NCBI GenBank assembly: GCA_029557215.1
Contig: JAKPQQ010000255.1
Coordinates: forward strand, 16 to 64,015
DNA from: Fibrobacterota bacterium
GTDB taxonomy: Bacteria > Fibrobacterota > Fibrobacteria > UBA5070
DNA: 64,000 bases
Reading direction: 5' to 3'
The notes under the pieces were generated by a model. The model did no database searches and was not told the DNA's origin. It saw nothing but the letters and a program-made list of their open reading frames with translations. Both the position numbers and the translations under genes were made by a program. Each line of letters opens with the position of its first letter. Position 1 is the first letter of the stretch. This document shows positions 1-27,599 of this stretch, piece after piece.

Positions 1-656
1 AAGTGCCGCCTGGACGGCGGGAGCGAATCCATCGCCTCGAGCGCCCGGATCGTCATTTCCCGTTTGAACTCGCGCAGCAGGGAGGCGGGCGCGCCCTCGG
101 CGGTCAGGAACGGGTCGGAGTGATGCCATTTTCCGTCGTCGTCGCGGACCACCAGGCCCAGCGATTCGAGCCGTTCCACCGACCGGCGCGCCTCGGAGGC
201 GGTGATGCGCGGCCTGACCAGCGCCGCCAGGCGGGAGTAGTCGCCGTTCCAGTCGGAATGGACCGCCAGTTCCCGGACGGCGACGTTGTACCAGTTCTCC
301 CAGAAGGGGAACTGGTGCGATGCCAGCGAGATCTTGCCGCTTTGCAGACGCAGCCGCTTGATCCGATCCAGCCAGGATTCGCGGTGTTCGACGGTGTCGG
401 ACTGGTTGAAGCGGATCAGGGCGTCCAGGAATTCGGCGGCGGCTCCCACGAGGCCGACCGCTTCGACAAGGCGCGGGATCGACGCGTCGCCCAGCCTGCG
501 GGATCCGCCCACGATCAGCGAACAGAATCCGGTGGATTTGAATCCGGCCTTCTGCGCGAACCATCGCCGGGAAAAGCTCGGGCGCAGCCTCTTTTCCTCC
601 TCGAAGTAGTCCTTGAGGAACTCCCGGTAGTTGTCGTATTCGAACAGCCTTCCCAC
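1..656 (-). CDS. TIGR02147/DUF4423-family putative HTH regulator, paralog A (3' end runs off the window)
   Basis: Not in the ORF track because it is open to the window edge. Hand translation of the minus strand from GTG at 656 gives VGRLFEYDNYREFLKDYFEEEKRLRPSFSRRWFAQKAGFKSTGF...SLLREFKREMTIRALEAMDSLPPSRRH. It is colinear with the 24553..25425 paralog and about 55% identical by eye. Alternative TTG start at 689. Track ORF 3..713 (+) is its antisense shadow. Confidence 0.7.
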   Translation of the reverse strand, partial: MGRLFEYDNYREFLKDYFEEEKRLRPSFSRRWFAQKAGFKSTGFCSLIVGGSRRLGDASIPRLVEAVGLVGAAAEFLDALIRFNQSDTVEHRESWLDRIKRLRLQSGKISLASHQFPFWENWYNVAVRELAVHSDWNGDYSRLAALVRPRITASEARRSVERLESLGLVVRDDDGKWHHSDPFLTAEGAPASLLREFKREMTIRALEAMDSLPPSRRH

Positions 657-880
657 CGCCTGGTTGCGGTCTTGGGATTGCCTGGCCAATGGGATGGGTC
701 TCCGGTTCGGTGATGCGATGTTGGTGCTCTGGCTGACGGTACATCCGCAGGAGCGGCTTCGCCAAGCGATTCATGGTCCCCCGCCCGGGACATCGCTTTC
801 CGGCGCTTTCCGGATCCGACGAAAGCCCCGGCTCCGGTGGGGAGCGGGGCGATCCGAAGGAACGGTTCGGACGCTTGGCG

Positions 881-2572
881 TCAGAAGCGGGTCAGCTTGA
901 GCGCCTGGTCGGCGCCTCGCACGAGAAGGAGACCCTTGGCGAGGGTGCGGAATTCCACTGGAGCGGATCCGGTGGTGGAGATGTTGCCGATCCGCCGACC
1001 GCCGGCATCGATCACTTCCAGATCCAGGATCCCGTTGGAGGTGATCACGAGGCCGTTGGGCGAAGAACGGACATCGAAGGCGCGTCGAAAGGCGGGGATG
1101 CGAGTCACACCCGCTGTTCCGCTGGTCGCCAGCTGCCAAGCGGAATAGTCGAGCGAATTGATGGAGGTGGACGAGGCGTTCGCACCCAGTCCTTTCGCGT
1201 CGGCGACTCTCCAGCGGATGCTATCCTCCACCGAGGCGGCGCGCGCGGCGATCGGGAGGCCGTCGATCCGGATTTCAGCGGATCGCGAGGTGGTGTAGAT
1301 GGAGGTGTCGATTCCTTCGCCCTCGACCTGCACGAAGAACGCCTTCGTCGATTCGGGAGCGGTCCAGTACAAGTACGCGGTTCCGGAGCCGATGATGCCC
1401 TTCTCGTTCGCGGGCTTGGTCGGATCGACGATGCCTTTCAGGTTGAAGGCGCGGAGTTCCTTGCCGCTGACATGCCAGAACGTGGAATCGCCGAAGTCGG
1501 CGCTCGTGGTCGCCTTGTTCAAGGTGAGCGTGCCGGCCGGGACCGGCAGGCGATATCCGTCCCAGTCGTAGAACGCCAGGATGCTGTCGCCTGCAAGGAG
1601 GCTCAGGCCTGAGGCCGATCTCGCCGTGAGCACCTGGTGCTGGTAGGCGACGGAGTCCTTGCCGAGCGAAGGCACCAGCATCGTGTCCTGTTCCAGCTTT
1701 CCGTCGACGACGCAGTTGTGGAGTGCCTGGCGGGTTGTGCGCGAAACATGGAGCCAGCACTTGCCGGTGCCGGAGGCGAGGTTGAATCCCCATTGCCATG
1801 CGCTTGAGTTGTCCGGTGAGCGGCCGAAGGAGGAATCGACGTGCTTGAGCCACCCCAGGTCTTCCACCGCGTAGGGGCTGTGCATGAATTTGACCTTCTT
1901 TCCCCACGAATTCCCGGCGAAGTCGAGAGTGGGCATGGTCGAACCCGTGGCGAGGTTGGTGGCCAACGAAACGTCGCTCCAAAGGAACCTGCCGCTGTCG
2001 GACTTGGACATGTTGACGGAAAGCGATGTTCCACCGGTCTGGTCGCGGTTCGCTCCGACGTGGAAAATCCCCTTGTCGCCGGCGAAGATCGCCAGGTTCT
2101 TCGAGATTCCGACGCCGACCAGGTTCGATTCTTCGCTGAATCCGTAGTTGGAATAGCCAGCTGCGACCTTCGCGAAGCCGAGCCCTTGGTACTTCGCCCA
2201 GCGCGATCCCGTCTCGAACGGGAATAGCGCCGTGTTCGAGGTCGCTTTCCAATCGACGAGCCAGAACGCCGTGTCGGATATGGTGTTGGCCAAGGCCAGG
2301 ATCCCGAGGCCGTCGCCCAGGTTGACGTATTTCGACATGCCCCAGGTCTGTCCGCCGCGTTTGGGGAGCGAGTCCACCACCCGCAGGTCCGATCCGTACA
2401 CGACCTTCTTCACGGTGTTGCCGGCCACGATGTAGGCGGTGTCGCCGTCGGCGGTCACGCTGGAGATCGCGCTCCCCGAAACGAGAAGCCGGGGATCGGA
2501 CAGTTCCACCGTGCGGTTCGGGGTGGACGAGGACAATGCCGCGGCGGCCAGGGATGCCAGTGGGGTGATCAT
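881..2572 (-). CDS. secreted protein of unknown function with C-terminal sorting-tail-like domain (cargo family 1, copy 1)
   Basis: Internal ATG at 2572 of track ORF 881..2902, preceded by AAGGAGAAG. The N-terminus MITPLASLAAAALSSS is signal-peptide-like. Shares DGDTAY and Y-x-LGDG-GIL blocks with the adjacent 2697..4025 product. The C-terminus ...LDLEVIDAGGRRIGNISTTG...LLLVRGADQALKLTRF resembles FlgD-Ig/T9SS-type tails. No catalytic domain recognised. Confidence 0.7.
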   Translation of the reverse strand: MITPLASLAAAALSSSTPNRTVELSDPRLLVSGSAISSVTADGDTAYIVAGNTVKKVVYGSDLRVVDSLPKRGGQTWGMSKYVNLGDGLGILALANTISDTAFWLVDWKATSNTALFPFETGSRWAKYQGLGFAKVAAGYSNYGFSEESNLVGVGISKNLAIFAGDKGIFHVGANRDQTGGTSLSVNMSKSDSGRFLWSDVSLATNLATGSTMPTLDFAGNSWGKKVKFMHSPYAVEDLGWLKHVDSSFGRSPDNSSAWQWGFNLASGTGKCWLHVSRTTRQALHNCVVDGKLEQDTMLVPSLGKDSVAYQHQVLTARSASGLSLLAGDSILAFYDWDGYRLPVPAGTLTLNKATTSADFGDSTFWHVSGKELRAFNLKGIVDPTKPANEKGIIGSGTAYLYWTAPESTKAFFVQVEGEGIDTSIYTTSRSAEIRIDGLPIAARAASVEDSIRWRVADAKGLGANASSTSINSLDYSAWQLATSGTAGVTRIPAFRRAFDVRSSPNGLVITSNGILDLEVIDAGGRRIGNISTTGSAPVEFRTLAKGLLLVRGADQALKLTRF

Positions 2573-2696
2573 GGATGCTTCTCCTTGGTTGAAGGTAATC
2601 CAACGATATCGCCGGCACGTTTCGCTGCGTGTCCCGCGCACCGGGCATTCCGTGGACAAAATGTCCGATGCGCACGCCCCGGTTCGTCCTTCGCGG

Positions 2697-4025
2697 TCAG
2701 CGCGGAACGAACAGCGACCGCGCGATGCCGCCGCATCGGACCAGGACCGGACGCCCTCCGGAAGTGACAAAATCCGACATGCCGGAAGCGCCGATCGCGA
2801 AGCGTCCGAGCCGTTGGCCGACCGCGTCGAACACGTCCACCTCCGCTCCTGGCGTTCCCGCCAGGCGAAGGATTCCAGGGGCGGCCGTGGCGCTCCAGCC
2901 ATCGATCTTGCGCGACGGCGCGACAGCCGAGGCTCCTTGCCTTGTGATCGGATAGGCTTTCAAGTCGGAGGATCCGGCCTGCCAGAGCGCCGTGTTCCCG
3001 AATGCGGTTCCCGGGAAGTAGCCTCCGGGGAGTGTCGCGACGGGCATCGGGAGGGAACCTGGTTCCCGGCCGAGCAGCACCTGGACGCCTTCGCCGGAGA
3101 CCAGGTGGAACCCGAATCCGGAACGGGTGGTTTCGAAGGGGGCTCCGTACGCGTGCGACGCCGGTCCGCGGTTGCCGGGCATCGGGAAGCCGCCCGAGAT
3201 GGACCATCCTGTCGGGGAGCTCGAGTTCCAGAGGTACATGACGGAATCCGCCCGTCCGATGCTCAGGACGTTCGCCGCGTCCAACCGCAGCGGAGCGGGG
3301 GTGTTCGGGACGGGGATGGCGACCGGATCCTTCGGGGGGGGAGGCAGGAGGATACCCTGGCGCTCGATGGATTCGAATCCCGAAACCGGGTCGATCGAGG
3401 ATCCGGGGATGTTCCAGACCTCCAGCGCGTCGGAGGATGACTTGGCGACGATTCCTGTCGAATCCATCGAGATCGCCTCCCAGTAGGGGTCGACAGGAAC
3501 GTTCTTCGGGCGCTTCAGGACCAGGCTGTCGCGTTCGCCGGTGGATTTTCTGGTGAACACCGAGGCCAGGAACAGGCCTTCGGTGCGCGCGATGGCGGCC
3601 GTCGAAGCCGAAAGCCGCACGCCTTGGATTGTCCGATTCGATGCATGCACGGGTCCCAGGGCGGGGAACGCCTTCCAGTGCCGATCTTTCCAATCGACCG
3701 CCAGGATCGTGCTGTCGTTGTCGGCGCTGCCCGGTGTGCTGTAGGCCGCGCTCAGGATCCCGAAGCCGTCTCCGAGGGCGACGTATCGGGTGCGATCCCA
3801 GCTCCGCGAAGTCGGGACGGGGATCGAATCCACGGTCCGGATCCGATTCCCGTCCAGGACCATCTTGCGGAGTTGTTTCCGGGTGCAGACATAGGCGGTG
3901 TCGCCGTCCGTGTCGACTCCGATGACCGTTCCGGAGAGGGATGTCGAGGCGGGCGAAAAAAGCTCGATCTGCGGGAGGGTGGAAGACGACGACGCGAGAA
4001 GCAGGGAGATGGATGCGGCGATCAT
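2697..4025 (-). CDS. secreted protein of unknown function with C-terminal sorting-tail-like domain (cargo family 1, copy 2)
   Basis: Internal ATG at 4025 of track ORF 2697..4238, preceded by AGGAGA. The N-terminus MIAASISLLLASSSS is signal-like. Tandem paralog of 881..2572 (VDTDGDTAYV, YVALGDGFGILSAAY). C-terminal tail is ...AEVDVFDAVGQRLGRFAIGASG...PVLVRCGGIARSLFVPR. Confidence 0.7.
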   Translation of the reverse strand: MIAASISLLLASSSSTLPQIELFSPASTSLSGTVIGVDTDGDTAYVCTRKQLRKMVLDGNRIRTVDSIPVPTSRSWDRTRYVALGDGFGILSAAYSTPGSADNDSTILAVDWKDRHWKAFPALGPVHASNRTIQGVRLSASTAAIARTEGLFLASVFTRKSTGERDSLVLKRPKNVPVDPYWEAISMDSTGIVAKSSSDALEVWNIPGSSIDPVSGFESIERQGILLPPPPKDPVAIPVPNTPAPLRLDAANVLSIGRADSVMYLWNSSSPTGWSISGGFPMPGNRGPASHAYGAPFETTRSGFGFHLVSGEGVQVLLGREPGSLPMPVATLPGGYFPGTAFGNTALWQAGSSDLKAYPITRQGASAVAPSRKIDGWSATAAPGILRLAGTPGAEVDVFDAVGQRLGRFAIGASGMSDFVTSGGRPVLVRCGGIARSLFVPR

Positions 4026-4253
4026 TGGGGAGTCTCCTGTGGATGATGGTCGGCGGCGGGCGCCTTGGAGGAAGGTTACGGGCGTCCGAGCCGTTATCCA
4101 TCGGGGTTCGCGGGCGATAGCGTTGCCAATTTGTCCCCGCGATCGATCGGGCGCCGACCGGATGCGGCGCGGATCGTGGTCAGAATGTCCACGGCGAATC
4201 GGTCCGGTCCGGTGACGGAACCCGGTGGAGAAAGCCATGTTCTAGGCGTACCC

Positions 4254-5087
4254 ATGGCCAGCGTCTACGCCCATACCGACTATCGCGCCTTCCTGCGCGA
4301 ATGGTTCTCCGAAGAAAAGGAGCGCCGTCCGGCGCTTTCCTACCGGTGGATGGGACAGAAACTGCTGATGGACGCGAGCCTCCTGGCCAAGATCTTCGGG
4401 GGCGAACGGCACCTTTCCGCCTCGCGCGTGCAGCCGGTCCTCGACATGGTCGGGCTGTCGGGCCTGGAAGCCGAGTACTTGCGGATCCTGGTCCAGTACG
4501 GCAAGTCCAAGAGCGCCAAGGAATCGCAGGTCTGCTTCGCCAAGCTCGCCGAACTGCGGCGCGTGGCGCCGGTCGCGGTCGACGATTCGCAGGCCGGCTA
4601 CTGGGATTCGTGGGTCAACGTGGCGGTGCGTTCCCTGGTCTCGTGCGGATCGTTCAAGGACGAATGGGAACGCATCGGGGCGCTGCTGCGTCCGCAGGTG
4701 TCGGGCGCGAAGGTCAAGGAAGCCGTGGCGACCCTGGCCCGGCTCGGGTTCGTGGAGAAGGATCAGGACGGATTCTGGCGCGTCCGCGAGCCGTTTTTGC
4801 GCGACGGCAAGGGGCCGCAGGTCCGGGCGTTGCGGCATTTCCACAGGCAGTCCCTGCTCCTGGCGGTGGAAGCCATCGAGAACGTCCCGGTGGACCGCCG
4901 CGACATTTCTTCGGTGACGGTGTCCATCCCGGAATCCGGCTACGCCGAGATCTCCGAGATGGTCAGGGATTTCCGGTCGCGGCTCCTGACCGCGGTTTCG
5001 CGGATGCGGGGGCCCGATCGCGTCTACCAGGTGAGCATCCAGGCGATTCCGCTCGCGTTGCCGCCGTCCGACGGCGCGGAGGGCTAA
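4254..5087 (+). CDS. TIGR02147/DUF4423-family putative HTH regulator, paralog B
   Basis: ATG at 4254 inside track ORF 4065..5087. MASVYAHTDYRAFLREWFSEEKERRP...SYRWMGQKLLMDASLLAKIFGGERHLS is an XRE-like HTH segment, followed by a long DUF4423-like body. About 70% identical by eye to paralog C (8495..9334) over the first 60 residues. Confidence 0.85.
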   Translation: MASVYAHTDYRAFLREWFSEEKERRPALSYRWMGQKLLMDASLLAKIFGGERHLSASRVQPVLDMVGLSGLEAEYLRILVQYGKSKSAKESQVCFAKLAELRRVAPVAVDDSQAGYWDSWVNVAVRSLVSCGSFKDEWERIGALLRPQVSGAKVKEAVATLARLGFVEKDQDGFWRVREPFLRDGKGPQVRALRHFHRQSLLLAVEAIENVPVDRRDISSVTVSIPESGYAEISEMVRDFRSRLLTAVSRMRGPDRVYQVSIQAIPLALPPSDGAEG

Positions 5088-5098
5088 CTTTGGCCGCG

Positions 5099-6634
5099 AT
5101 GTCGCCAGCCCTCAACGGTTCCAGGCTCCTCCGATTCCTGCTTCTTCCGGCGTTGGGCGCGGTGCTGGCCGCCTGCGGCGGTCCGGAGCGGATCGCCGGG
5201 AACAACGGGTCCACCACGGGAACCGAGGCGGGCAACGCGTTCACCGCCCGCGTGGTGCGCCTCGACGGCTCTCCCGCCGCGGGGGCCGTCGCGAAGGCGC
5301 GGAGGACGGAAAGCGTCGAAGACTCCTCGTCGTGGCCGTCGGGGATCGCCGACTCGGCCGGCCGCGTGCGGCTGGTGCTGGACACCGCCAGCGGCTGGAC
5401 CATCGAGTTCGCCGAACCCGGAAGTGCCATCCTGCGCCGGATCGCGCGGAAGTCGGATTCCGTCGTCGACGCGTCGGTGGTCCTGGTGCCGACCGCCGGC
5501 GTCGTCGGAAAGGTCCGCGGGGGCGTCCCCGGCGCGAAGATCGCCATCGCGGGCCTGGGCCGGACGGTCCCGCTGGACGCGGACACGATGTTCCGGTTCG
5601 AGGGGCTTCCATCGGACAGTCTGTTCCTCCTGCTCGTCGGCGCGGACGCCGGATGGAGCCTCGATCTCGCTCCGGGCACGACAAGATCCGTCGTGCTCGA
5701 CGCCCGGACCGGGAGCGTTCCCGCCGATCCGGAAATCGTCGTGCGATTCCCGCGCGGTCGGATCCAGCCGGGAGCCCTGCTTCCGCTCGAACTGGGAAGC
5801 CCCTCGGAATCCGACGCTTCGGCATCCTGGAACGACTACCGTCTCGTCGACGTCCAGGGCGCGATCGTTCCGACCCGTCTGGAAGGACGCGACGCGAAGA
5901 CCGGGATCAGCCGACTCTGGATCCGCGTTCCGGGGAACGCGACCGATTCCGGGTTCGTGTTGCGGGTGGTGCCCGCCGCCGCGGCGGGATCGGCCGGGTC
6001 GTCGCCCTTCGTCGGGTCGGGGATCGCGTCGGCGGTGCTGTTCGACACGATCTCCAACGGGAGCGCCCCCGATCTCGCGCGCCCCGGGGCCTGGCTCCAA
6101 GGGATCCATTCCCTTGCCGGATCGGCCTCCGATCCGGTGTTCGGCGGGGCAGCGTCCTTGTCGGCGAGCTTCGGGCCGGATCTTGTCGCATTGGATTCCA
6201 ACGCCTTCCCGACATCCGATGCCGGCGGGTTCGCCATGCGGTTCCGTCTTCTGGATCCGACGTTCGGCCGCCTGTGGTTGTTCCAGGCCGACGATTCGGG
6301 GGCGAGCCGTTTCGTGAGGGTCGGTTTGGGCGGCGGATGGCTTGTTCTCCAGGCCGGCGACCATCGCGATTCCGTCAAGATGTCTTCCGACGCCGCGTCC
6401 CATGTCCTGTCCGTGGCCAGGAGCGCCACGGCATGGACGGCGAGTTTCGACGGCGTCGCCACGTTGTCCGTCTCGATCGATTCCGTTTCGCGCGACACGA
6501 AATGGGCGCGTCGGGTGGTCGGGCGCGGCGCGGGCATCGCCATCCGGGAACTGTTCGTCTTCGATGGCGGATACCCCGATTTCCGCGCTGCCTCGCTCGC
6601 CGGAAGGATCGCGATCGAGCGCTCCTGGCGCTGA
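5099..6634 (+). CDS. lipoprotein: carboxypeptidase-regulatory-like repeats + DUF2341-like + LamG/concanavalin-like C-terminal domain (module B)
   Basis: ATG at 5099, or TTG at 5090 six nt after GGAGGG, inside track ORF 4301..6634 and 11 nt after the regulator stop. Lipobox LGAVLAAC. ARVVRLDGSPAAGAVAKARR...DSAGRVRLVL is CarboxypepD_reg-like. DYRLVDVQGAIVPTRLEG...ISRLWIRVPGNATDSGFVLRVVP matches the DUF2341 pattern. The C-terminal ~170 aa are LamG-like. Confidence 0.8.
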   Translation: MSPALNGSRLLRFLLLPALGAVLAACGGPERIAGNNGSTTGTEAGNAFTARVVRLDGSPAAGAVAKARRTESVEDSSSWPSGIADSAGRVRLVLDTASGWTIEFAEPGSAILRRIARKSDSVVDASVVLVPTAGVVGKVRGGVPGAKIAIAGLGRTVPLDADTMFRFEGLPSDSLFLLLVGADAGWSLDLAPGTTRSVVLDARTGSVPADPEIVVRFPRGRIQPGALLPLELGSPSESDASASWNDYRLVDVQGAIVPTRLEGRDAKTGISRLWIRVPGNATDSGFVLRVVPAAAAGSAGSSPFVGSGIASAVLFDTISNGSAPDLARPGAWLQGIHSLAGSASDPVFGGAASLSASFGPDLVALDSNAFPTSDAGGFAMRFRLLDPTFGRLWLFQADDSGASRFVRVGLGGGWLVLQAGDHRDSVKMSSDAASHVLSVARSATAWTASFDGVATLSVSIDSVSRDTKWARRVVGRGAGIAIRELFVFDGGYPDFRAASLAGRIAIERSWR

Positions 6635-6668
6635 TCCGCGGGCCATCATGGATCCGGCGAACGCGAAA

Positions 6669-6691
6669 CGGCCCTTCTTCTGGAAGGGCCG
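6669..6691. terminator. hairpin between convergent genes (putative bidirectional terminator)
   Basis: CGGCCCTTC-ttctg-GAAGGGCCG, a 9-bp perfect stem lying between the lipoprotein B stop (6634) and the BNR/CBM3 stop (6739). The minus-strand reading is followed by TTTCGCGTT. Confidence 0.4.
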
Positions 6692-6738
6692 TGCGATCGT
6701 TCGGGGAGAGATGTCGAAAACGACGGAACGCGGGAGGA

Positions 6739-8205
6739 TCAGCGCGCGAAGGCGCCCCAGACCTGCGATCCGTTCTGGTAGACAGCGATGTAGGGGTTGA
6801 GGGTCCAGTCGAGCGCCGATTGCAGGTACGAGAAATCGTTCGACTGGTCGAAATTCGACCAATCCGATTTGGCCACGCGCCCCTGGATTTCGCCCGAAAC
6901 CTGTCCGGCTCCGACCGTCGCGCTGGATGCGATGGTCAGATCCAGGGCCCGTTCAGCGTTGAGCGCGCCGATGGCGCGGGTCACGCTGTAGGGGCTGTAG
7001 TCCAGCGTGTAGGATTCCGTCGCGCTTCCTTCGCGCGCGTAGCGGTAGCGGAATTTGACGTTCTTGAGCTGGACGGGAACCGATCCCAGGTTGCGCAGGC
7101 GGATGTTGGGGTACAGCTGGTTGCCCACGACCTGGTTGTCGGAGTGCTTGTATTCGGCGACCACGTTCGAGCCCGACCAGCGGGCGGTCTTGAACCAGGT
7201 CGCGCCGTCGTCGTCGGAGCGGAACGCGCCGTATTCCGTGGTCGCGTACAACGTGCGGATCGCGCCGGTGCCGGGAGCGGTGGATACGCTGGAGACGATC
7301 GCGCCGAATCCGTTGCCGTAGGCGGGGATGTTGGGGTTGTGGATGGAGACCCAGAACTGCCCGCCGGTGCGCGTGGTCCAGACCGCCTTGTCGGTGCGGC
7401 CGCCGAACGAAACGTAGAAGGTCTTGCCGCTCGCGTCGCGGGAATCGATCGCGATGCTCGAAACCAGGTTCCGCGGCATGCCGCCCCAATGTCCGGAATC
7501 GATCCGGGTCCAGCTGGGCGTGCCGGCCTTGGCTCCGAACACCAGCCAGACTTCGCCGTTGGCCGTTCCCACGACGACGATGTCCGACACCGGGTTGACG
7601 GCGACGGCGCTGAGCGCCGAACCCGAGGGGGGCAGGAGCGGATCGTTGGCGGGCTGGACGGTGGTGAAGGTCGCGCCGAAGTCGGTGGAGTAGGCGACTC
7701 CTCCGCCGGTCGCGACGTACAGCGTGCCGTTCCTTGGATTCACGGAGGCGTTCCAGACGTCGCCGTAGGGCAGGTTCGAGGTGAGATCGGTCCAGCTCAG
7801 GCCGCCTCTCCCTTTCACGACGCGCCAGAATTTGCCACCCTGCTGCGTGCCGGCGAAGGACACGAACGCCGAATATTCGTCGTGCGTGTAGGTGGGGGCG
7901 ATGCTCGTGACGGCGAGGCCGGGGGCGGAATTCACGATCCCGCCGCGACCGTCTTCGGCCGAATCGAGCCTCGTCCAGGCGGGGCTCGCCACGCGGCCGC
8001 TCGTGGACAGGTAGACCTTGCCGTCGGTGTATCCCAGCCAGACCTGGTCCGGGTCCAGGCCCGATTGGCGGGTGGTGGAAGGAATCGCCGCGCCGGACTT
8101 CAGAGGCTCCCACGCGTCGATGGGAAGGGTCTGGGCTTGGGCTGCGGTCGCGGCCAGGGACAAGGTGCCGAGGGCGAGCCCCCGGCGCAGGGTGTTCTTG
8201 AACAT
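6739..8205 (-). CDS. secreted BNR/Asp-box beta-propeller protein with C-terminal CBM3-like cellulose-binding module
   Basis: Track ORF; AGGAGAAG lies upstream. Signal peptide MFKNTLRRGLALGTLSLAATAAQA. Asp-box motifs YSTDFGATF and RSDDDGATWF. The C-terminal ~150 aa carry CBM3 hallmarks: NIRLRNLGSVPVQLKNVKFRYRYAREG and GEIQGRVAKSDWSNFDQSNDFSY. Paralog of 25569..26981. Confidence 0.85.
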   Translation of the reverse strand: MFKNTLRRGLALGTLSLAATAAQAQTLPIDAWEPLKSGAAIPSTTRQSGLDPDQVWLGYTDGKVYLSTSGRVASPAWTRLDSAEDGRGGIVNSAPGLAVTSIAPTYTHDEYSAFVSFAGTQQGGKFWRVVKGRGGLSWTDLTSNLPYGDVWNASVNPRNGTLYVATGGGVAYSTDFGATFTTVQPANDPLLPPSGSALSAVAVNPVSDIVVVGTANGEVWLVFGAKAGTPSWTRIDSGHWGGMPRNLVSSIAIDSRDASGKTFYVSFGGRTDKAVWTTRTGGQFWVSIHNPNIPAYGNGFGAIVSSVSTAPGTGAIRTLYATTEYGAFRSDDDGATWFKTARWSGSNVVAEYKHSDNQVVGNQLYPNIRLRNLGSVPVQLKNVKFRYRYAREGSATESYTLDYSPYSVTRAIGALNAERALDLTIASSATVGAGQVSGEIQGRVAKSDWSNFDQSNDFSYLQSALDWTLNPYIAVYQNGSQVWGAFAR

Positions 8206-8494
8206 GGGCGTAGACTTCTCCTGGTGTTTGGTTCACCGGCGCCAACGGGGAATTCCGCCGCGCATTGACGAATATTGTCTATCCGGAGCCGTCCGCGAGG
8301 ACTTTCCGCACGGTCTCCCTTCCTTTGCGCTTTCTGGCGCTTTCCGGGATCGGGCCGTTCCCGCATGGACGGGAAACGCCGGATTCCGGCGGGTTGGCGG
8401 GAGGTTCCGGGGGCGCCAGGGGACATTTTGGCAACGGCGAACGCGATTTCCGGTGGACGGAACCCCTTCGCGAAAGCCATGTTCTTGGCATCCG

Positions 8495-9334
8495 ATGGCC
8501 AGCGTCTACGCCCACACCGACTACCGCAGGTTCCTGCGCGAATGGTACGCCGAAGAGAAGGCGAGGCGACCCCATCTGTCCTTCCGCTGGATCGAGCAGA
8601 AGACCGCCACGGACCACAGCCTCCTGTCCAAGATCTTCGCGGGGGAGCGCCACGTGTCGTCCACGCGGGTGCCGCAACTGGTGGATCTGGTGGGGTTGAG
8701 CGGGCTGGAGGCGGACTATTTCCGTCTGCTGGTGCAGTACGGAAAGGCCAAGAGCGCCAAGGAGGCGCAGCACTGCTTCGCCAAGCTCGCCGAACTCCGC
8801 CGGGTGGCTCCGGTGCCTCTGGAGGAAGCGCAGTCCGGATTCTGGGATTCGTGGGTGAACGTCGCGGTGCGGGCCCTCGTCGGCTGCGGAAGGTTTTCCG
8901 ACGGATTCGAAGAGATGGGCGCCTTGCTCCAGCCCCGGGTTCCCGGGGCGCAGGTCCGAAAGGCGCTGGCGACGCTGTCCGGACTCGGGTTCGTGGAACG
9001 CGACGGAGACGGATTCTGGCGCATCCGGGAGCCGTTCGTGAGGGGCGTGTCGGCCGCTCAGGGGCGGTCGTTGCGGCACTTCCACCGCCAGACCCTGCTG
9101 CTGGCCGCCGAATCGGTGGAGGGGCTGCCGCCCGCGCTGCGCGATCTTTCCTCCGTGACGGTCTCCATCCCCGCGTCCGGATACGACGAGATCCGCGAGA
9201 TCGTGAAGGATTTCCGGTCGCGCGTGCTCACGGCCGTTTCGCGCATGTCGGATCCCGACCGGGTCTACCAGGTGAGCGTCCAGATGGTGCCGCTGGCGCT
9301 CCCCAAGGGCGTCGAGCGGGGCGTCGGAGACTAG
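8495..9334 (+). CDS. TIGR02147/DUF4423-family putative HTH regulator, paralog C
   Basis: ATG at 8495 inside track ORF 8018..9334. Begins MASVYAHTDYRRFLREWYAEEKARRP... Colinear with paralog B, including long identical nucleotide runs such as TGCTTCGCCAAGCTCGCCGAACT. Confidence 0.85.
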   Translation: MASVYAHTDYRRFLREWYAEEKARRPHLSFRWIEQKTATDHSLLSKIFAGERHVSSTRVPQLVDLVGLSGLEADYFRLLVQYGKAKSAKEAQHCFAKLAELRRVAPVPLEEAQSGFWDSWVNVAVRALVGCGRFSDGFEEMGALLQPRVPGAQVRKALATLSGLGFVERDGDGFWRIREPFVRGVSAAQGRSLRHFHRQTLLLAAESVEGLPPALRDLSSVTVSIPASGYDEIREIVKDFRSRVLTAVSRMSDPDRVYQVSVQMVPLALPKGVERGVGD

Positions 9335-9341
9335 AATTGCC

Positions 9342-10862
9342 ATGATGACGCCCGCCTCGCCCTCCCGGTTCCGCCGTCTCCTCGCGTCCTTCGCCCTGGC
9401 GCTGGCTTCCTGCGGGGACGACCGGGTCGCGGGCGGGACTTCCGGCGCCGAAGCGGAGAACGCCGTGAGCGCCAGGATCCTGCTTCCGGACGGGACTCCC
9501 GCGAAAGGGGTGCCCGTGGTGGCGAGGCCGTCCGGAGCGTTGACGGATTCCGTCTGGGCGCGCGGCGTGACCGACGATTCCGGAGTGGTTTGGCTGCGGT
9601 TGCCCGCCGCGCGGGAGTGGACCCTGGAAGCCGAGACGGATTCCGTCGCGACCTTCGCGCGGGTGGATTCGGGGTATCGCGGCGATGTCGCCGTCGTGGC
9701 AGGGCTGGAGCGGAAGGCCGCGCTGTCCGGCCGGTTCGTCCCCACCGGGGCGTCCTCCTTCGAGCTGTTCGTGGCGGGCCTGGGGCGTTCCACGACGGTC
9801 GGACCGGACGGGACCTTCTTCCTGGACGGACTGCCCGCGGGCATCGTGGAAGTCCGTGCGGCCGATCATCCCGTCGGATGGTCCATAGAGCTGTCCGCGG
9901 GCGACACCACCCGGGTCTCGCTGGATCTTCTGGAAGCGGGAAAGACCGCGGGGTCCCCCGGGGCCCCCATGTTGATGGCCTACCAGTTGCCGGGGAACCG
10001 CTACGCCGGATTGCCGATGGCCGCCGAATTCACCTTGCCTCCGGGGTGGCCCGCCGACCGGTTGCGGTTCGTCGCGCTGTCCGGGGCGATCGTTCCTGTG
10101 CAGTTGGCGTCCTTCGATTCGGTTTCCCGCGCCATCCGCGTCTGGTTCGTTCCCGGTGCGGCCGAACATGCGGGGAGCCTGCGGGTCTCGCTCGATTCCG
10201 TTCCGGCGGGGACATCGAAAGGGCTTCCGTTCGCAGGACAGGATCTGGCGAAGGTGGTCCTGTTCTCGCTGCCGCCTTCGAAATCGGGCTCGAGCGACGC
10301 CTGGCTCGATCTCGTCTCTGGGAGGACGCAGGTGGGGAGTTCCACGGTCTCGTACGGTTCGGATTCCGGCATCGCCCTCGGGGCGGGGATCGTGTCGCGG
10401 GATGCCGCCTCGATGCTCGTCCTGGGCGGCGCGAACCTGCCGGATTCGCTCGCCTACGCTTCGGTCCGCTTGCGGGTTCAGGACGGCTGGGGCAGGCCCG
10501 TGCGGATCCTGGAGCTGCGGGACACGAGCGGCGTGCCGATGGCGAAGATCGCGCATGTTCCCGACAGCCTGGTCTTCGAGACGAGCCTGGGGCGCAAGGC
10601 CTTCCGCGTGACCGGCGATTCGGCGATCTGGCGCAGCTACGCCATTTCCCGGCGCGGTCCGAACTGGGAATTCTGGATCGACGGCGATTCGGCGACCTCG
10701 CTCCCGCGCGATCCCGCGCAGGTTCGCGGGGATCTGTTCGTCGCGGAAGGCGGACGGATCCGGCTTTCCGAACTGTTCCTGGGATCGGTCGAGCTTCCTT
10801 CGCTCAAGCTCCGCATGCTGGGCCTGAAGAGCTACACGAATTTCTATCCGGCGGTGCGCTGA
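9342..10862 (+). CDS. lipoprotein: carboxypeptidase-regulatory-like repeats + DUF2341-like + LamG-like domain (module C)
   Basis: Track ORF starting 7 nt after the regulator C stop. Lipobox FALALASC followed by GDDRVAGGTSGAEAENA. ARILLPDGTPAKGVPVVARP...TDDSGVVWL is CarboxypepD_reg-like. DRLRFVALSGAIVPVQLASFDSVSRAIRVWFVPGAAEHAGSLRVSL is DUF2341-like. Confidence 0.8.
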   Translation: MMTPASPSRFRRLLASFALALASCGDDRVAGGTSGAEAENAVSARILLPDGTPAKGVPVVARPSGALTDSVWARGVTDDSGVVWLRLPAAREWTLEAETDSVATFARVDSGYRGDVAVVAGLERKAALSGRFVPTGASSFELFVAGLGRSTTVGPDGTFFLDGLPAGIVEVRAADHPVGWSIELSAGDTTRVSLDLLEAGKTAGSPGAPMLMAYQLPGNRYAGLPMAAEFTLPPGWPADRLRFVALSGAIVPVQLASFDSVSRAIRVWFVPGAAEHAGSLRVSLDSVPAGTSKGLPFAGQDLAKVVLFSLPPSKSGSSDAWLDLVSGRTQVGSSTVSYGSDSGIALGAGIVSRDAASMLVLGGANLPDSLAYASVRLRVQDGWGRPVRILELRDTSGVPMAKIAHVPDSLVFETSLGRKAFRVTGDSAIWRSYAISRRGPNWEFWIDGDSATSLPRDPAQVRGDLFVAEGGRIRLSELFLGSVELPSLKLRMLGLKSYTNFYPAVR

Positions 10863-11103: not shown

Positions 11104-12747
<1,644 letters not shown>

Positions 12748-20901: not shown

Positions 20902-21732
20902 ATGATCCTGTCCCTCTTGCTGGGCGTTGCCGGTGCGGCGGCCTCCCAGCCGCAGAAGATCGTGGGATACTACCCGTCTTGGGGGATCTACCAGGGGTTC
21001 ACCTGGAAGCAGGTCGACTACACCCAGGTGACCCACGTCGCGTGGTCGTTCGCGATGGTCGACAGCTCCACAGGGGCGTTGATCGGCCCGGGGGATCGCA
21101 GGGAATCGGACGACCTCGACTCGCTGGTGAAGGCGGCGCACGCCCACGGCGTGAAGGTCCTCGTGTCCTTGGGTGGTGCCACGGGTTCCGGCGCGACCTA
21201 TTCGGGGAGCGCGACGTATTCGGACTACCGCTCGATCGTCGCGGACCTTCCGACCTGGATGCGCCATTGGGACGACACCGCCAAGGCGAACTGGGCCACG
21301 ACGCCGGACGGCGGATACGTCACGTGGGACGATCCGCGGACCGCGGCCATGAAGGCCCGCTGGGCCAAGGAGAACGGCTACGCGGGCGCGATCGTGTGGG
21401 AACTGTCGCAGGATCACGCCGGCGGTGGGAACCACCCGATCATGGACAGCCTGGCGAAGGTCCTGCTGGGCGATCCGGTCGCGGTCGCGTCGCGCGTCCC
21501 GAAGGGCGATGGAATCCGTCAAGCCGGGGGCGAGGTCGTCCTCGATCTCGCGGACGGCGAATCCGGGACGCTGGAGCTGGTCGACCCTCTGGGGCGGGTG
21601 CTCCGCTCGACGAACGGGCGTGGGGCCGCGCTGCGGATCGGGTTGGACGGAATTCGTCCGGGGGTGGTCCTGGCGCGGACGGACCGGGGGCCGCGAACCA
21701 TGGTCCTGGTGGTCGGGGTGCCGAGCCGGTAA
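20902..21732 (+). CDS. GH18-like protein lacking the catalytic core, with C-terminal sorting-tail-like domain
   Basis: Track ORF; ACGGAGGTG lies upstream. Short signal MILSLLLGVAGAAAS. GH18 blocks present: KIVGYYPSWG, VTHVAWSFA, VKVLVSLGG and YAGAIVWELSQDH. No DxxDxDxE strand lies between them. Tail: EVVLDLADGESGTLELVDPLGRVLRS...VVLARTD. Confidence 0.7.
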   Translation: MILSLLLGVAGAAASQPQKIVGYYPSWGIYQGFTWKQVDYTQVTHVAWSFAMVDSSTGALIGPGDRRESDDLDSLVKAAHAHGVKVLVSLGGATGSGATYSGSATYSDYRSIVADLPTWMRHWDDTAKANWATTPDGGYVTWDDPRTAAMKARWAKENGYAGAIVWELSQDHAGGGNHPIMDSLAKVLLGDPVAVASRVPKGDGIRQAGGEVVLDLADGESGTLELVDPLGRVLRSTNGRGAALRIGLDGIRPGVVLARTDRGPRTMVLVVGVPSR

Positions 21733-21738
21733 GGCGGG

Positions 21739-24486
21739 TCAGCGCGTACGCCGGATCCCGATCCAGGACGGAACCGCCTGGAGATTGAACCGTTCCAGGG
21801 TCAGCCGTTCGGGCGACCACGCTCCACGCGCGATCCGCAGCTGACCGACCCGGCCTTCGAAGCCGGGGCGTGCCGAGATACCACCGATGTGGAAGGTGAG
21901 GGTGGGTCCTGAAACCGATCCGGGGTGCGAGAACCTGGAGATCGTGCCGGTGGCGTCGTCGACGAAGCTCGCCGTGGTGGATGTCGGGGTCCGGGCGAGG
22001 GCGAGTCCGAACGGCCGGCGCGCGGGAATGCGCGGCCCCGACGGACCCGATACGGTCTCCGAGTTGACGGATTCCGACATGACCGGGGCGTGGAACAGGC
22101 GAGGCGTCCGGGGGGACGAGGTGTCGGCGACGCTGCCGAGCGACACTTGTTCCGATCCGTCGTAGAATCCCGCCAGTGACGCCTGGGGAGGGATGGAATC
22201 CAGGTCCCAGATTCCGACGGCCGTGCAGGAATCCTCCTTGGGGATCAGGTCGTAGAGGGTGGTTTGCAGGTTCTGGGAGGAAGACAGCTCCATGGTGCGA
22301 CCCCACGGCCCCGGGGTGGAAGCGACGGGGACGGGGTTCAGGAACGGGCGCAGCTTGGCGGGTTGTCCGGTCGCGGGATCCAGCGGCGACAGCGCGGATG
22401 TCCCGGTGGCGGGATCGAACACGGCGTGCCAATGCCTCGCGAGGAAGACGGAATCCGGCGAATGCCGTGGCGTTTTGGTCGCGGCCGGATTCCCTTGCCG
22501 CCAGCTCCACGACACCGTCCCGCCGGACGGGAGGGAATCGGCGAGGATCCAGGCCTCGGCACGGCCGGTGGGGGCGTCCCAGAGCTGGACCCAGAACGGC
22601 ACGGAACCACCGGTGGAATCGAAGAACCGCAAGTCGTCGCCGTTTCCGGAACCCAGGGAGAAATCGACCATTCCGTCGAGCACGACGCGAACGGGGATCG
22701 GCCCGGGAGCGGAGGGAAGCTCGGGGACCCGCAGTTCCACGGTGCCCGCTCGCGCCCAGGAGTCGGCATCTTCGATCGCGTCGGAGCGGACCTGGAGCAT
22801 GGTCGGGGTCGCCGAAGCCGATGCCTGGACTTCCCAGGATTGTCCCAGGAGGCGCGATTCGCCCAGGTGGCGGAGGGCGATCCGGTAGGTGCCTTGCGGC
22901 AGGGTGTCGAACAGGATCGGGGCATCGGGCGCGACGGGTCCCAGGCGGCGGCCGGTCCCCAGGAGCAGGACATCGAAACCTCCCGCGCTCCAGGTCGTCG
23001 TGGCTTCGGGAGGGAGCGCGATCCGCAGCGAAAGGACTCCGTCGCGCGGAAGGAGCCTGGCCGTCGCGGGCAGATCCTGTCCGGCGTCCCAGGGCACGCT
23101 GGCCGCCTGGGCGCCGGAGGAGTCCCGGATTTCCAGTCGAAGGCGCCGGTCGGGGAACGTCGCGATCGCGCACTCGCCCGACCCGTTGGCGCGCCCCGAC
23201 ATCGCGAAACCTTCGGAACCGGGGGATTCGGATCCGACGACGACGCGCGCCGACGCGGCGGGGGAATCGCCGGCGGTGGCGGTCCGCAGGATCGTCCACC
23301 GGGTGGCGGAATCGGGAAGGTCGGCGGCGGCTCGCAGGATCCTGGCCGGGGCCGATGCCGCGTCGGTGTCGACGGAATCCGTTGCCAGAGGGGTCGCGTC
23401 GCGGCCCAGGTAGGAGACGTTCCAGCGACCCGCCGGAAGCGGACGCGATGTCCAGCCGCCGTCGTCGTCGGGGCGGAGCGTCCAGGGCGTGCCTTCGATC
23501 CGGATGCGGAGGGACGCAAGGTCCCAGGACCCTCCGCTGGACACGACGGGAAGCAACGCTCCCTGGATCGCCGTCTGTTTGGCCAGGCGGATGGTGTCGG
23601 GAATCCCGGCGACGGGATCCAGGGCAAGGAGCGCTCCGCCGCCACGGCCGTCGTCCAAGGTCAGGAACGCGGCGGAAGCCAGGGATGGCCTGGCGCAGAG
23701 TCCCGAGTCGTCGGAGACCAAGGTGTCGAGCGCCTTGCCGGAATCCGTCCACAGGACCGCCAGGGTCCGCACGGGGGTGCCGGTTCCGGAAAGCACCCGG
23801 AACGCGGGCGGTGCGGATGGATCGGCGGCCAGGACGGTATCCAGCCGGGCGGTGTCGCGGGATTCCACGTCGCAGGAATCCAGCGCCAGGACGGGGCGGG
23901 ACCGTCCGTCCAGGAGGACGGGCGCGAACGTCCCGGGAGGAAGCGAATCGAGCCTCCAGCGTCCGAGACTGTCGAGATCCGCCTGGCGCCCGAGCCCGGG
24001 AACGACGACCTTCCAGTCGCGGAAGGATCCGCCGTCGGCGGATCGGACGGTTCCGGCGAGCGATCCCCACGGCATGGCCCGCAGATCGCGGAGCGTTCCG
24101 GATTCCAGCCAGGAACGCTGCACCACCAGCCAGGCGCCGACGGAATCCGTCGGGACGTCCGCCGTCAGCACAAGGCGCTGGTCCGCGGGGCGCGGCGGGA
24201 ACGAATAGGCTCCGTCGGAATCCGTCAATGCGGTCCAGGTGGAATCGGTCGACCCGGGAATCCACGTGTCGGGTCGCAGGTGGACGACCGCTCCCGGCAC
24301 GGGACGCGATCGCGCGTCCACGACCCTGCCCGAGAGCTCGTTGGGAACGTCGGAACCGCCGCCCAATCGGAGGTCTCCGCATCCGTTGGCCAGCCACAGC
24401 AGCGCGCAACACGCGACCTTGGACGCGGTCGCCCATCGCGATCGTCCGGAATGGGCTGTGCTGCGGGTGCTGTTCCGTGCGGACAT
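21739..24486 (-). CDS. large lipoprotein: multiple carboxypeptidase-regulatory-like repeats + DUF2341 + LamG-like domain (module D)
   Basis: Track ORF of 915 aa. N-terminus KVACCALLWLANGCGDLRLGGGSD is a lipobox-like, less canonical sequence. Repeats of the type SGRVVDARSRPVPGAVVHLRP...TDSDGAYSF. Clear DUF2341 pattern: PIPVRVVLDGMVDFSLGSGNGDDLRFFDSTGGSVPFWVQLWDAPTGRAEAWILADSLPSGGTVSWSWRQGNPAA. LamG-like end: FEGRVGQLRIARGAWSPERLTLERFNLQ. Confidence 0.8.
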   Translation of the reverse strand: MSARNSTRSTAHSGRSRWATASKVACCALLWLANGCGDLRLGGGSDVPNELSGRVVDARSRPVPGAVVHLRPDTWIPGSTDSTWTALTDSDGAYSFPPRPADQRLVLTADVPTDSVGAWLVVQRSWLESGTLRDLRAMPWGSLAGTVRSADGGSFRDWKVVVPGLGRQADLDSLGRWRLDSLPPGTFAPVLLDGRSRPVLALDSCDVESRDTARLDTVLAADPSAPPAFRVLSGTGTPVRTLAVLWTDSGKALDTLVSDDSGLCARPSLASAAFLTLDDGRGGGALLALDPVAGIPDTIRLAKQTAIQGALLPVVSSGGSWDLASLRIRIEGTPWTLRPDDDGGWTSRPLPAGRWNVSYLGRDATPLATDSVDTDAASAPARILRAAADLPDSATRWTILRTATAGDSPAASARVVVGSESPGSEGFAMSGRANGSGECAIATFPDRRLRLEIRDSSGAQAASVPWDAGQDLPATARLLPRDGVLSLRIALPPEATTTWSAGGFDVLLLGTGRRLGPVAPDAPILFDTLPQGTYRIALRHLGESRLLGQSWEVQASASATPTMLQVRSDAIEDADSWARAGTVELRVPELPSAPGPIPVRVVLDGMVDFSLGSGNGDDLRFFDSTGGSVPFWVQLWDAPTGRAEAWILADSLPSGGTVSWSWRQGNPAATKTPRHSPDSVFLARHWHAVFDPATGTSALSPLDPATGQPAKLRPFLNPVPVASTPGPWGRTMELSSSQNLQTTLYDLIPKEDSCTAVGIWDLDSIPPQASLAGFYDGSEQVSLGSVADTSSPRTPRLFHAPVMSESVNSETVSGPSGPRIPARRPFGLALARTPTSTTASFVDDATGTISRFSHPGSVSGPTLTFHIGGISARPGFEGRVGQLRIARGAWSPERLTLERFNLQAVPSWIGIRRTR

Positions 24487-26981: not shown

Positions 26982-27302
26982 TTCCGTTCCTTCCGTTTTC
27001 ATGTCGGGAATTGTCCTTGTTCCGAGGCCGGAGTCCCGATCGGCTTGGTCGTCGATGCGAGCGTTCCGGCTGAAGACAAATTTCGGCGAAACGGAGGTGG
27101 AAAGGAGCGCGGAACGGCGAGGACGGAAGGAAAACGCTTGCTGGCGCTTGCTACGGCGGACTCGGTTCAATCCATGTCGCGAGGGAACGGGATTCGGCCG
27201 ACCGGAATCGAACAAAGGGGATCGCCATTCGGCGATGGGCGGTCGGGCGAATGTGGATGCGCGGATCCCGGCGCGACGATGCGCCGGATGCCGGGGGCGG
27301 GG

Positions 27303-27599
27303 TCAGCCGTTGTCTTCGAAGACCAGCGTGTGCTTGCCCAGGTGGATCTCGTCGCCGTTCTGCAGCAGGGTGGCCTGCACGCGACGGCTTCCCATGTAGG
27401 TGCCGTTGAGGCTGTTGAGGTCTTCCAGCACGAAGTGGCTCGCCGAAGGATCGCCGTCGATGCGCAGATGGGTGCGCGAGACGCCGGGATTGTCGAGCAC
27501 GATCGTGTTCGTCTTCAGACGGCCCACGGTCACCGTGCCCGGAGGCAGCTGGACCTGGGAGATCTGTTTGTCGTTTTCAAGGACGTACAAGGAAGCCAT
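27303..27599 (-). CDS. stand-alone FHA-domain protein (98 aa)
   Basis: Only the 3' end of track ORF 27303..30788 is credible. From the ATG at 27599: MASLYVLENDKQISQVQLPPGTVTVGRLKTNTIVLDNPGVSRTHLRIDG...LEDLNSLNGTYMGSRRV...GDEIHLGKHTLVF, a canonical FHA pattern. Confidence 0.85.
   Translation of the reverse strand: MASLYVLENDKQISQVQLPPGTVTVGRLKTNTIVLDNPGVSRTHLRIDGDPSASHFVLEDLNSLNGTYMGSRRVQATLLQNGDEIHLGKHTLVFEDNG

Follow-up and report, generated by a model that had tools for sequence, protein, structure and literature searches.

Analysis of a 64,000-nucleotide stretch of DNA from a Fibrobacterota bacterium (GenBank assembly GCA_029557215.1, contig JAKPQQ010000255.1, positions 16 to 64,015 of the forward strand; the whole stretch is hereafter called the window) revealed a two-gene cassette, in which a gene for a regulator of the TIGR02147/DUF4423 family is followed by a gene for a lipoprotein. 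The cassette is a real and widespread module and not a local duplication: a lipoprotein gene was found downstream of 75 of the 77 evaluable TIGR02147 genes in the window and its sampled relatives. A preliminary description of the window had read the pairing as a fixed one between DUF4423 and DUF2341 and had proposed a sensing/regulation or surface-display system. This reading needs two corrections, as the pairing is not with DUF2341 and the sensing role is without support. The window has a G+C content of about 66%, and its closest protein relatives belong to uncultured Fibrobacteres/Fibrobacteria metagenome-assembled genomes (MAGs).

Regulators, partner lipoproteins and the generality of their pairing

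Exactly five members of the regulator family were identified in the window by a phmmer search of all six-frame open reading frames (ORFs).

1..656, minus strand: regulator A, TIGR02147/DUF4423, C-terminus cut at the window edge
4254..5087, plus strand: regulator B, TIGR02147/DUF4423, 277 aa
8495..9334, plus strand: regulator C, TIGR02147/DUF4423, 279 aa
24553..25425, minus strand: regulator D, TIGR02147/DUF4423, start codon uncertain, TTG at 25425 proposed
55297..56184, plus strand: regulator E, TIGR02147/DUF4423, 295 aa

The assignment of A, B and C to this family, made earlier from the letters of the DNA, was borne out by profile hidden Markov model (HMM) runs. With thresholds of 50 bits for TIGR02147 (NCBIfam) and 30 bits for DUF4423 (Pfam PF14394), the three proteins score 178.5, 211.7 and 208.1 bits for the former, the alignment of A spanning model positions 3-219 of 272, and 45.9, 101.3 and 87.8 bits for the latter. 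D and E match A and B at E values of 1e-28 to 1e-78 (phmmer) and score 97.6 and 69.3 bits for DUF4423, confirming five modules in one 64-kb window. Identity between B and C is 68% overall and exactly 70% across the first 60 residues, the value that had been estimated. A shares 55.5% identity with D, against 25-32% with the remaining paralogs, and the two form the second subfamily that had been proposed for them, while E is separate from both the B/C and the A/D subfamilies. Beyond the window the family is large, with 17,513 clusters at 50% identity (E<=1e-3).

The partner lipoproteins of B, C, D and E (named LB, LC, LD and LE) lie within the window, and the partner of A would be outside it to the left.

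5099..6634, plus strand: LB, partner of B, 511 aa, lipobox LAAC, Cys26; alternative ATG at 5090
9342..10862, plus strand: LC, partner of C, 506 aa, lipobox LASC, Cys24
21739..24486, minus strand: LD, partner of D, 915 aa, lipobox LANGC, Cys36
56181..57866, plus strand: LE, partner of E, 561 aa, lipobox LAAC, Cys21

All four partners carry a signal peptide and a Cys in lipobox context, and all are encoded on the same strand as their regulator. The distance from the regulator stop to the partner start is +11 nt for LB and +7 nt for LC, as first described together with their lipoboxes, +66 nt for LD and -4 nt for LE, where the GTG start of LE overlaps the TGA stop of E. LB, LC and LE satisfy a PROSITE PS51257-like rule, namely the pattern [LVI][ASTVI][GAS]C with its Cys at about position 15-35 after a signal peptide, which is a pattern match only.

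Relatives were collected from three sources: a scan of GTDB species genomes with an alignment of the B/C orthogroup (25 loci), look-ups for distant homologs (6 further loci) and a metagenome scan with an alignment of a low-GC subfamily that is 19-26% identical to B (49 loci). The sampled loci (numbered with the prefix L) cover high-GC Fibrobacteria, low-GC lineages, a Halobacteriovoraceae MAG (L023) and an unclassified bacterium (L025). The family HMM, run over all sampled DNA and the window, returned 88 unique TIGR02147 genes, and the 77 whose 3' end is complete and that have 150 nt or more of downstream sequence were taken as evaluable. Automatic scoring, which required a same-strand ORF with a signal peptide and a lipobox-type Cys, found 74 of the 75 pairs, and the partner in L061, present after a gap of 565 nt, was added by inspection. 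The genes of the 74 pairs are closely packed, overlapping by 4 nt in 23 pairs and by other lengths in 13, and standing +1 to +15 nt apart in 31. Partner length ranges from 159 to 917 aa. In one exception, L074 (1145-3025), the regulator carries a C-terminal extension of about 60 aa and is followed by an unrelated cytoplasmic-looking gene; in the other, L079/L080 (4352-5236), the partner has a signal peptide and no Cys but retains a GGVEGGN-type motif.

The preliminary description had named local tandem duplication as the finding that would undo its proposal. B/LB and C/LC are indeed clear recent paralogs (68% and 28% identity, respectively), which lie 4 kb apart among paralogous neighbours. 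However, the partners in D/LD and E/LE have diverged, and the same arrangement recurs in 75 of 77 cases on unrelated contigs; some of these regulators share no more than 19-30% identity with B, and some of the loci belong to another phylum, the pairing being kept in both L023 and L025. Local duplication of one ancestral pair, devoid of wider functional meaning, therefore cannot explain the adjacency, and we regard it as highly improbable. Clustering of the ORFs within 5 kb of the cassettes gave no third family in more than six loci of the sample, which indicates that the unit consists of two genes.

The constant base and variable head of the partner lipoproteins

The constant part of the partners comprises the lipobox, a short motif and beta-sandwiches of the CarboxypepD_reg type, and does not include DUF2341; the C-terminal modules vary. 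Among 57 complete partners, CarboxypepD_reg is found in 45 (E<=1e-3), DUF2341 in only 9 and Laminin_G_3 in only 6, so the fixed coupling of DUF4423 to DUF2341 does not hold. Kelch propellers (5 partners), Sortilin-Vps10 (2) and BNR (2) make up further modules. Within the window, LD is the sole partner with DUF2341 (33.3 bits; Pfam PF10102, cutoff 23.4 bits). LD also passes the CarboxypepD_reg cutoff (PF13620, 32.3 bits) with 59.4 bits, while LC (29.8 bits) and LE (21.7 bits) remain below it. No NCBIfam model matches any partner lipoprotein.

Sequence comparison located the same constant region. Full-length alignment of LB and LC gives 28% identity (E 4e-27). In BLAST searches LC resembles LD and LE at the N-terminus only (E 7.6e-5 for LE), and LB gives only a weak N-terminal match to LD. 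An hhalign comparison of the LB/LC family with the LD family aligned residues 41-182 of LB to residues 44-194 of LD (E 4.3e-9), a region formed by the motif and two beta-sandwiches; the homology is limited to the N-terminal 140 or so mature residues and does not extend into the DUF2341 region.

LB and LC had been credited with one shared architecture of lipobox, carboxypeptidase-regulatory-like repeats, a DUF2341-like domain and a LamG-like domain. The lipobox holds for both, and CarboxypepD_reg is detected below threshold in LC. LB, by contrast, has no Pfam match at all, and neither DUF2341 nor Laminin_G (PF13385 and relatives) is found in LB or LC by Pfam at E<=0.01. The LamG-like domain finds an echo only at the level of the predicted fold. 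In the AlphaFold2 model of LB, two beta-sandwiches at residues 47-200 are confident (predicted local distance difference test, pLDDT, 83-93). Foldseek matches the model to pilin-type immunoglobulin (Ig) domains and, for the C-terminal part, where pLDDT is 50-80, to neurexin LNS, laminin LG4-5 and CBM40 domains (E 1e-7 to 1e-5, probability 1.0). A sequence-profile search of the PDB with LB returned nothing significant.

A conserved short peptide 5-15 residues past the lipobox Cys, unremarked in the preliminary description, is the second element of the constant base. It takes the form [VI]-A-G-G-[TS]-x-G-[TS]-E-[AT]-G-N-[AP] in high-GC Fibrobacteria, G-T-x-S-E-T-D-T (with GSETDT-type variants) in the low-GC lineages and C-G-T-E-T-G-N-P in the Halobacteriovoraceae locus L023. 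The four partners in the window carry it as follows.

5219..5236, plus strand: motif of LB, G-T-E-A-G-N, residues 41-46
9444..9461, plus strand: motif of LC, G-A-E-A-E-N
24340..24360, minus strand: motif variant of LD, GGSDVPN, diverged
56262..56285, plus strand: motif variant of LE, GTNDETHT, diverged

The strict motif occurs 17 times in a six-frame search of about 325 kb, every time 38-316 nt past a TIGR02147 stop codon. The motif regular expression matches 11 of 15 regulator-adjacent lipobox ORFs, the remaining 4 being near-variants by eye, and none of 21 non-adjacent lipobox ORFs in the sampled DNA. Its codons vary synonymously, which shows that the constraint acts on the protein. The LB model places the motif where a disordered tether ends, immediately ahead of the first beta-strand. 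Bacteroidota-type O-glycosylation (D-S/T-A/I/L/V/M/T) was considered as an explanation and rejected, since it fits only some of the low-GC variants (SETDTA).

Candidate operators and a proposed autoregulated operon

The predicted structure of the regulator provides clues to its function. The AlphaFold2 model of B is confident (pLDDT 89) and shows a five-helix helix-turn-helix (HTH) bundle at residues 10-84, a winged helix (helix-helix-hairpin) at 138-180 and long C-terminal helices. HTH_31 or HTH_3 was detected below threshold in B, C, D and E (16.6-21.3 bits, cutoffs 23-27), always at residues ~25-78. The Foldseek matches of the B model are weak and fall mostly on DNA binders, either winged-helix proteins of the MarR, IclR, ArsR and MecI types or HTH proteins of the HigA type; those to HigA (6jpi, 3trb) have E values of 0.6-0.8 and target-normalised TM-scores of 0.52-0.61. 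A sequence-profile search of the PDB with the regulator returned nothing significant, C.BclI matching at an E value of 0.069. The regulator has neither a signal peptide nor a transmembrane segment. At the level of its predicted domains, a DNA-binding transcription factor is a reasonable reading of this protein.

When the upstream regions of B, of C and of their orthologs were aligned, a 17-bp palindrome of the B/C type emerged, GTGGACA-N3-TGTCCAC. The following four sites lie in the window.

4176..4192, no strand: palindrome proximal to B, scored as perfect, GTGGTCA-GAA-TGTCCAC, centre 70 nt before the B ATG; candidate operator
4122..4138, no strand: distal copy upstream of B, GTTGCCAATTTGTCCCC, 2 mismatches
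8419..8435, no strand: palindrome-like site upstream of C, GGGGACATTTTGGCAAC, 2 mismatches, centre 68 nt before the C ATG
2652..2668, no strand: palindrome-like site upstream of S563 (a secreted-protein gene ahead of A, listed below), GTGGACAAAATGTCCGA, 2 mismatches, centre 88 nt before the S563 start

Across the loci, GTGGNCANNNTGNCCAC was matched with 0-1 mismatch 26 times, and 25 of these matches lie 63-124 nt upstream of the starts of B/C-type regulators. The sites are usually paired, 26-32 bp apart, and the two-site arrangement is conserved in orthologous loci. The site at 2652-2668 is single and hints, as a candidate, at cross-regulation of another cassette (the S563-A run) by B or C. 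In the low-GC subfamily a different palindrome, GTCCTA-N7-TAGGAC, is centred 45-66 nt upstream of the start in 17 loci (among L029-L053). About 22 nt after it comes a TATAAT box, whose end is 8-10 nt from the ATG. The palindromes of the two subfamilies thus differ but occupy the same position, an arrangement that fits autoregulation by the encoded protein.

Several promoter-like features were also noted. The right half of GTCCTA-N7-TAGGAC extends to the -35 position of the putative promoter. Promoter-like boxes stand about 8-10 nt before regulator start codons, as TATAAT or TATTAT in the low-GC loci L035-L053 and, upstream of E at 55282-55289, as TAACTTTG, a -7 element of the Bacteroidota type TAnnTTTG. 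Boxes this near to the start codons suggest that the regulator mRNAs are leaderless or near-leaderless. A scan of positions 1-11200 for sigma-70 promoters and terminators returned nothing beyond shuffled expectation. One strong hairpin was found at 10993-11021 on the minus strand, between LC and a phosphoglucomutase gene.

On balance we consider it somewhat more likely than not that the cassette is a self-contained autoregulated operon for a dedicated regulator and an exported, probably ligand-binding lipoprotein. A cytoplasmic regulator with an N-terminal XRE/Cro-type HTH, a central winged helix and a C-terminal helical region, probably dimeric, would bind the palindromic operators just upstream of its own promoter and, responding to a putative signal, would control both its own gene and the lipoprotein gene. 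The latter would be co-transcribed and translationally coupled through a 4-nt overlap or a gap of at most 15 nt. The lipoprotein would be exported via Sec and signal peptidase II and anchored in the envelope through its N-terminal Cys. Its predicted base is a flexible tether bearing AGG-T/S-x-G-T/S-E-A/T-G-N, followed by one or two transthyretin-like (CarboxypepD_reg) beta-sandwiches, and its head would be a variable ligand-binding module (ConA/LamG-like, DUF2341, Kelch or BNR propeller, or beta-helix). Many cassettes would coexist in one genome, each with its own regulator, those of the B/C type sharing an operator region with a divergent secreted-protein gene. Given a regulator for each cassette, we propose that the cassettes are individually switched units, which would display different binding proteins in the envelope.

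Several observations weigh against this operon model. The whole-chain fold of the regulator has no PDB match at E<=1e-3 in Foldseek (best E 0.027), so that its role in DNA binding is drawn from single domains. Binding and autoregulation are read from phylogenetic footprints, and another factor could use the sites. Upstream of A, D, E and their orthologs, inspection found only locus-specific hairpins and no shared palindrome, and within the window alone the enrichment of the palindrome is marginal (8 matches against 2.9 expected, with 8 reached in 2 of 100 shuffles). On the side of the lipoprotein, the LANGC lipobox of LD is non-canonical and satisfies a relaxed rule only, and the LB model is of modest quality, with a mean pLDDT of 67 from 11 sequences. 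Plain autoregulation, moreover, gives no explanation for a motif that is conserved only in regulator-linked lipoproteins.

Three readings of this motif fit the data alike: it has a structural or sorting role inherited with the module, it is recognised by an unlinked envelope factor, or it is recognised by the regulator itself. The sensing idea of the preliminary description would correspond to the latter two: the peptide would be recognised by the TIGR02147 protein (for example in an unexported precursor) or by an unlinked envelope component, and transcription would respond to whether the lipoprotein has been exported or has bound its ligand. Such coupling would account for a motif that is the only strongly conserved feature of the partners and is confined to regulator-adjacent lipoproteins, and it agrees with the tight translational coupling of the genes (the -4 nt overlap in 23 of 74 pairs) and with C-terminal modules of lectin-like or propeller type, typical of extracytoplasmic sensors. 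However, nothing ties the lipoprotein to the cytoplasmic regulator, which has no signal peptide or transmembrane segment, and within 5 kb neither a membrane-spanning nor any other third component is conserved. Placed immediately before the first beta-strand of the first sandwich, the motif may be structural, and common descent of the entire N-terminal module would likewise confine it to the cassettes. We consider this coupling unlikely. Slightly more doubtful is its boldest form, a new two-component feedback device lacking a membrane transducer, in which the motif would let the regulator read whether its own lipoprotein has been exported, or read a fragment processed from it. If true, each cassette would tune or mutually exclude the expression of one envelope binding protein, which would amount to a new coupling of surface-protein display to transcription in a family of more than 17,000 protein clusters that spans Fibrobacterota, Bdellovibrionota and other lineages.

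The motif may instead be a sorting or tethering signal of a lineage-specific surface-export route for lipoproteins, with the regulator merely its usual neighbour. Fibrobacterota and Bacteroidota both belong to the FCB (Fibrobacteres-Chlorobi-Bacteroidetes) group, and in Bacteroidota lipoproteins are directed to the surface by a short acidic signal that follows the Cys. This kinship speaks for a sorting signal, as do the position of the motif in a disordered tether, 5-15 residues past the Cys, and its acidic residue. A general signal would nevertheless not be limited to regulator-linked genes, and 0 of 21 other lipobox ORFs in the sampled DNA have the motif; the motif also occurs in the Halobacteriovoraceae locus, and a peptide of its type is kept in the L079 partner, which has a signal peptide and no Cys. 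We judge this explanation improbable as well. A toxin-antitoxin-like or anti-phage defence module, composed of an XRE/HigA-like HTH protein and a coupled downstream gene, would be in keeping with the weak HigA resemblance of the N-terminal regulator domain (6jpi, 3trb), the palindromic operator and the overlapping genes. Yet B, LB, D, LD, E and LE have no PADLOC match at E<=0.01, a tblastn search of a plasmid collection with the L023 regulator gave no match, and the partner is not a toxin but a lipoprotein (159-917 aa) that is exported and has domains of adhesin or lectin type, which makes a defence role very improbable.

Neighbouring genes, related systems and significance

Genes for secreted proteins surround the cassettes, as first described, and are conserved in the closest relatives. 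These and other genes of the window are listed below.

881..2572, minus strand: S563, secreted, unrecognised family, upstream of A on the same strand
2697..4025, minus strand: S442, paralog of S563, divergent from B
6739..8205, minus strand: BNR1, secreted, CBM3-containing, divergent from C and convergent with LB
20902..21732, plus strand: short GH18-like protein, Glyco_hydro_18 74 bits in two stretches, catalytic domain matched only in part
25569..27215, minus strand: BNR2, paralog of BNR1 (42% identical), upstream of D on the same strand, start codon uncertain
27303..27599, minus strand: FHA-domain protein, 98 aa, FHA 68 bits, heading the same-strand run FHA, BNR2, D, LD
43928..45262, plus strand: large ORF, 444 aa, coding-like G+C at third codon positions
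45246..47843, minus strand: large ORF, 865 aa, coding-like G+C at third codon positions
52693..55203, minus strand: VIT1, VIT-domain secreted protein, divergent from E, VIT 25.8 bits against a cutoff of 26.5
57919..60144, plus strand: VIT2, VIT1 paralog that follows LE directly; ORF open from 57802, with translation probably starting at the Met ahead of the signal peptide

S563 and S442 had been described as tandem paralogs of an unrecognised family, in agreement with their 36% identity over 94 aa (E 1.6e-12) and with the lack of any match to them in Pfam or NCBIfam. Homologs of S563 lie beside a C-type cassette in L001, L004 and L005, and an S442 ortholog (448 aa) is divergent from a C-type regulator in L001, L003 and L004; the S442-type gene and the B/C-type regulator have their candidate operator region in common. 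For BNR1, taken before as a BNR-propeller/CBM3 protein, the CBM_3 domain was confirmed (29.5 bits, cutoff 22.4), while the BNR propeller assignment is weak, the one match of this kind in BNR1 being to the F510_1955 glycosylhydrolase model and below threshold (38.9 bits against a cutoff of 175). Orthologs of BNR1, 53% identical, are present in L001 and L004. Pfam finds BNR below threshold in BNR2. The gene order of L001, a CBM3 protein followed by a regulator and a 917-aa lipoprotein, is that of the window, and in L001 and L002 a syntenic LC ortholog is followed by a phosphoglucomutase gene, again as in the window.

VIT1 and VIT2, of about 800 aa each, are 29% identical over 750 aa and flank the E/LE cassette; both VIT matches are just below the Pfam cutoff. 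The GH18-like gene is convergent with LD and ends 7 nt from its 3' end. The FHA gene is absent from the syntenic region of L001; as FHA proteins read phospho-threonine, its place beside the cassette might be a regulatory link. A type IX secretion (T9SS) sorting domain (TIGR04183/PF18962) was sought in the C-terminal 95 residues of S563, S442, VIT1, VIT2, GH18 and U444 and none was found above threshold, the only match being S563 (E 0.15, 12 bits against a cutoff of 23). T9SS cargo status was thus not supported for the neighbouring secreted proteins. Pfam matches neither the 444-aa nor the 865-aa ORF, and neither has a paralog elsewhere in the window.

Elsewhere in the window, a response regulator adjoins an ATPase of the type II secretion/type IV pilus kind at 18282-20807 (T2SSE 433 bits), a FliK-like hook-length protein lies at 28651-30390 (Flg_hook 49 bits) and a dCache/HAMP chemoreceptor at 48550-50781. 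Taken together, these genes suggest motility and chemotaxis functions in this MAG. Cultured Fibrobacterota are usually described as non-flagellated.

The cassettes resemble the polysaccharide-utilisation loci (PULs) of Bacteroidota, a related phylum, in several respects. In both, each locus has one dedicated regulator and a genome holds many paralogous loci; the proteins are lipid-anchored, with Ig-like spacers and lectin-like distal domains, and secreted carbohydrate-binding proteins (CBM3) lie beside them. PUL regulators, however, are SusR, hybrid two-component systems or pairs of extracytoplasmic function sigma and anti-sigma factors, whereas the cassette regulator is small, cytoplasmic and of the HTH type, with neither a sensor nor a membrane domain, and the cassette consists of two genes with no systematically linked glycoside hydrolase. 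Pfam gave no Plug, TonB_dep_Rec or SusD match among the genes of 1-10862 or beside D and E, and the sole TonB-dependent receptor in the window (Plug, 38827-41427) is distant from all cassettes. The analogy drawn earlier, to such loci without SusC/SusD, amounts to one regulator per surface-protein locus, and the SusC/SusD pair is absent.

Other known systems share single features with the cassette. Autoregulated factors of the XRE/Cro and MarR types have in common with it the predicted five-helix HTH and winged helix, palindromes upstream of the own gene and the regulator in first place in the operon. Unlike these, the cassette regulator matches the Pfam HTH models only below threshold and combines two HTH-type domains with a DUF4423 C-terminal region that has no significant PDB counterpart, and an obligatory lipoprotein partner is a feature of the cassette and not of either family. 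The lipoprotein export signal of Bacteroidota is likewise a short peptide with acidic residues a few positions past the lipidated Cys in a disordered tether, but it is of the K/S-D/E-D/E type, whereas the cassette motif reads G-T/S-E-A/T-G-N or SETDT, lies 5-15 residues past the Cys and is linked to regulators only. In clostridial RsgI/SigI and in RcsF/NlpE, a carbohydrate-binding or envelope-sensing module outside the cytoplasm is genetically tied to a transcription factor, as here; in those systems, however, an anti-sigma factor or sensor kinase spans the membrane, and no such protein is encoded in or near the cassettes. DUF2341/LamG proteins linked to MotA/TolQ/ExbB-type channels recall the partners with these domains (DUF2341 in LD and 9 of 57 partners, Laminin_G_3 in 6 of 57), but no ExbB/TolQ gene is adjacent and most partners, including LB and LC, have no detectable DUF2341.

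The name TIGR02147 was given two decades ago to a family of Fibrobacter paralogs. Fibrobacterota degrade cellulose without cellulosomes or PULs. In agreement with the preliminary description, a full-text search of the searchable literature found no function for TIGR02147/DUF4423, and no account of the cassette. The sole, incidental mention concerns Bd3700, which is up-regulated as Bdellovibrio grows in prey (PMC12546842). In the envelope proteome of F. succinogenes S85, lipoproteins with a 'carboxypeptidase regulatory-like domain' are lower on cellulose than on glucose (PMC6851124). These lipoproteins (FSU_2817, FSU_1088, FSU_2134 and FSU_0627) were filed under peptidoglycan turnover (PMC6851124, Table 3) because of the domain name, and they may be members of the cassette partner family.

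In conclusion, the cassette is a so far undescribed form of the 'regulator plus target' theme, notable for its breadth and for its unexplained motif. If its lipoproteins are individually regulated envelope binding proteins, they would bear on substrate recognition in Fibrobacterota. The two-domain HTH protein, its near-constant coupling to a motif-bearing lipoprotein and the subfamily palindromes together make the family directly testable, yielding concrete candidate operators, a peptide and an annotation rule for thousands of 'hypothetical lipoproteins'.

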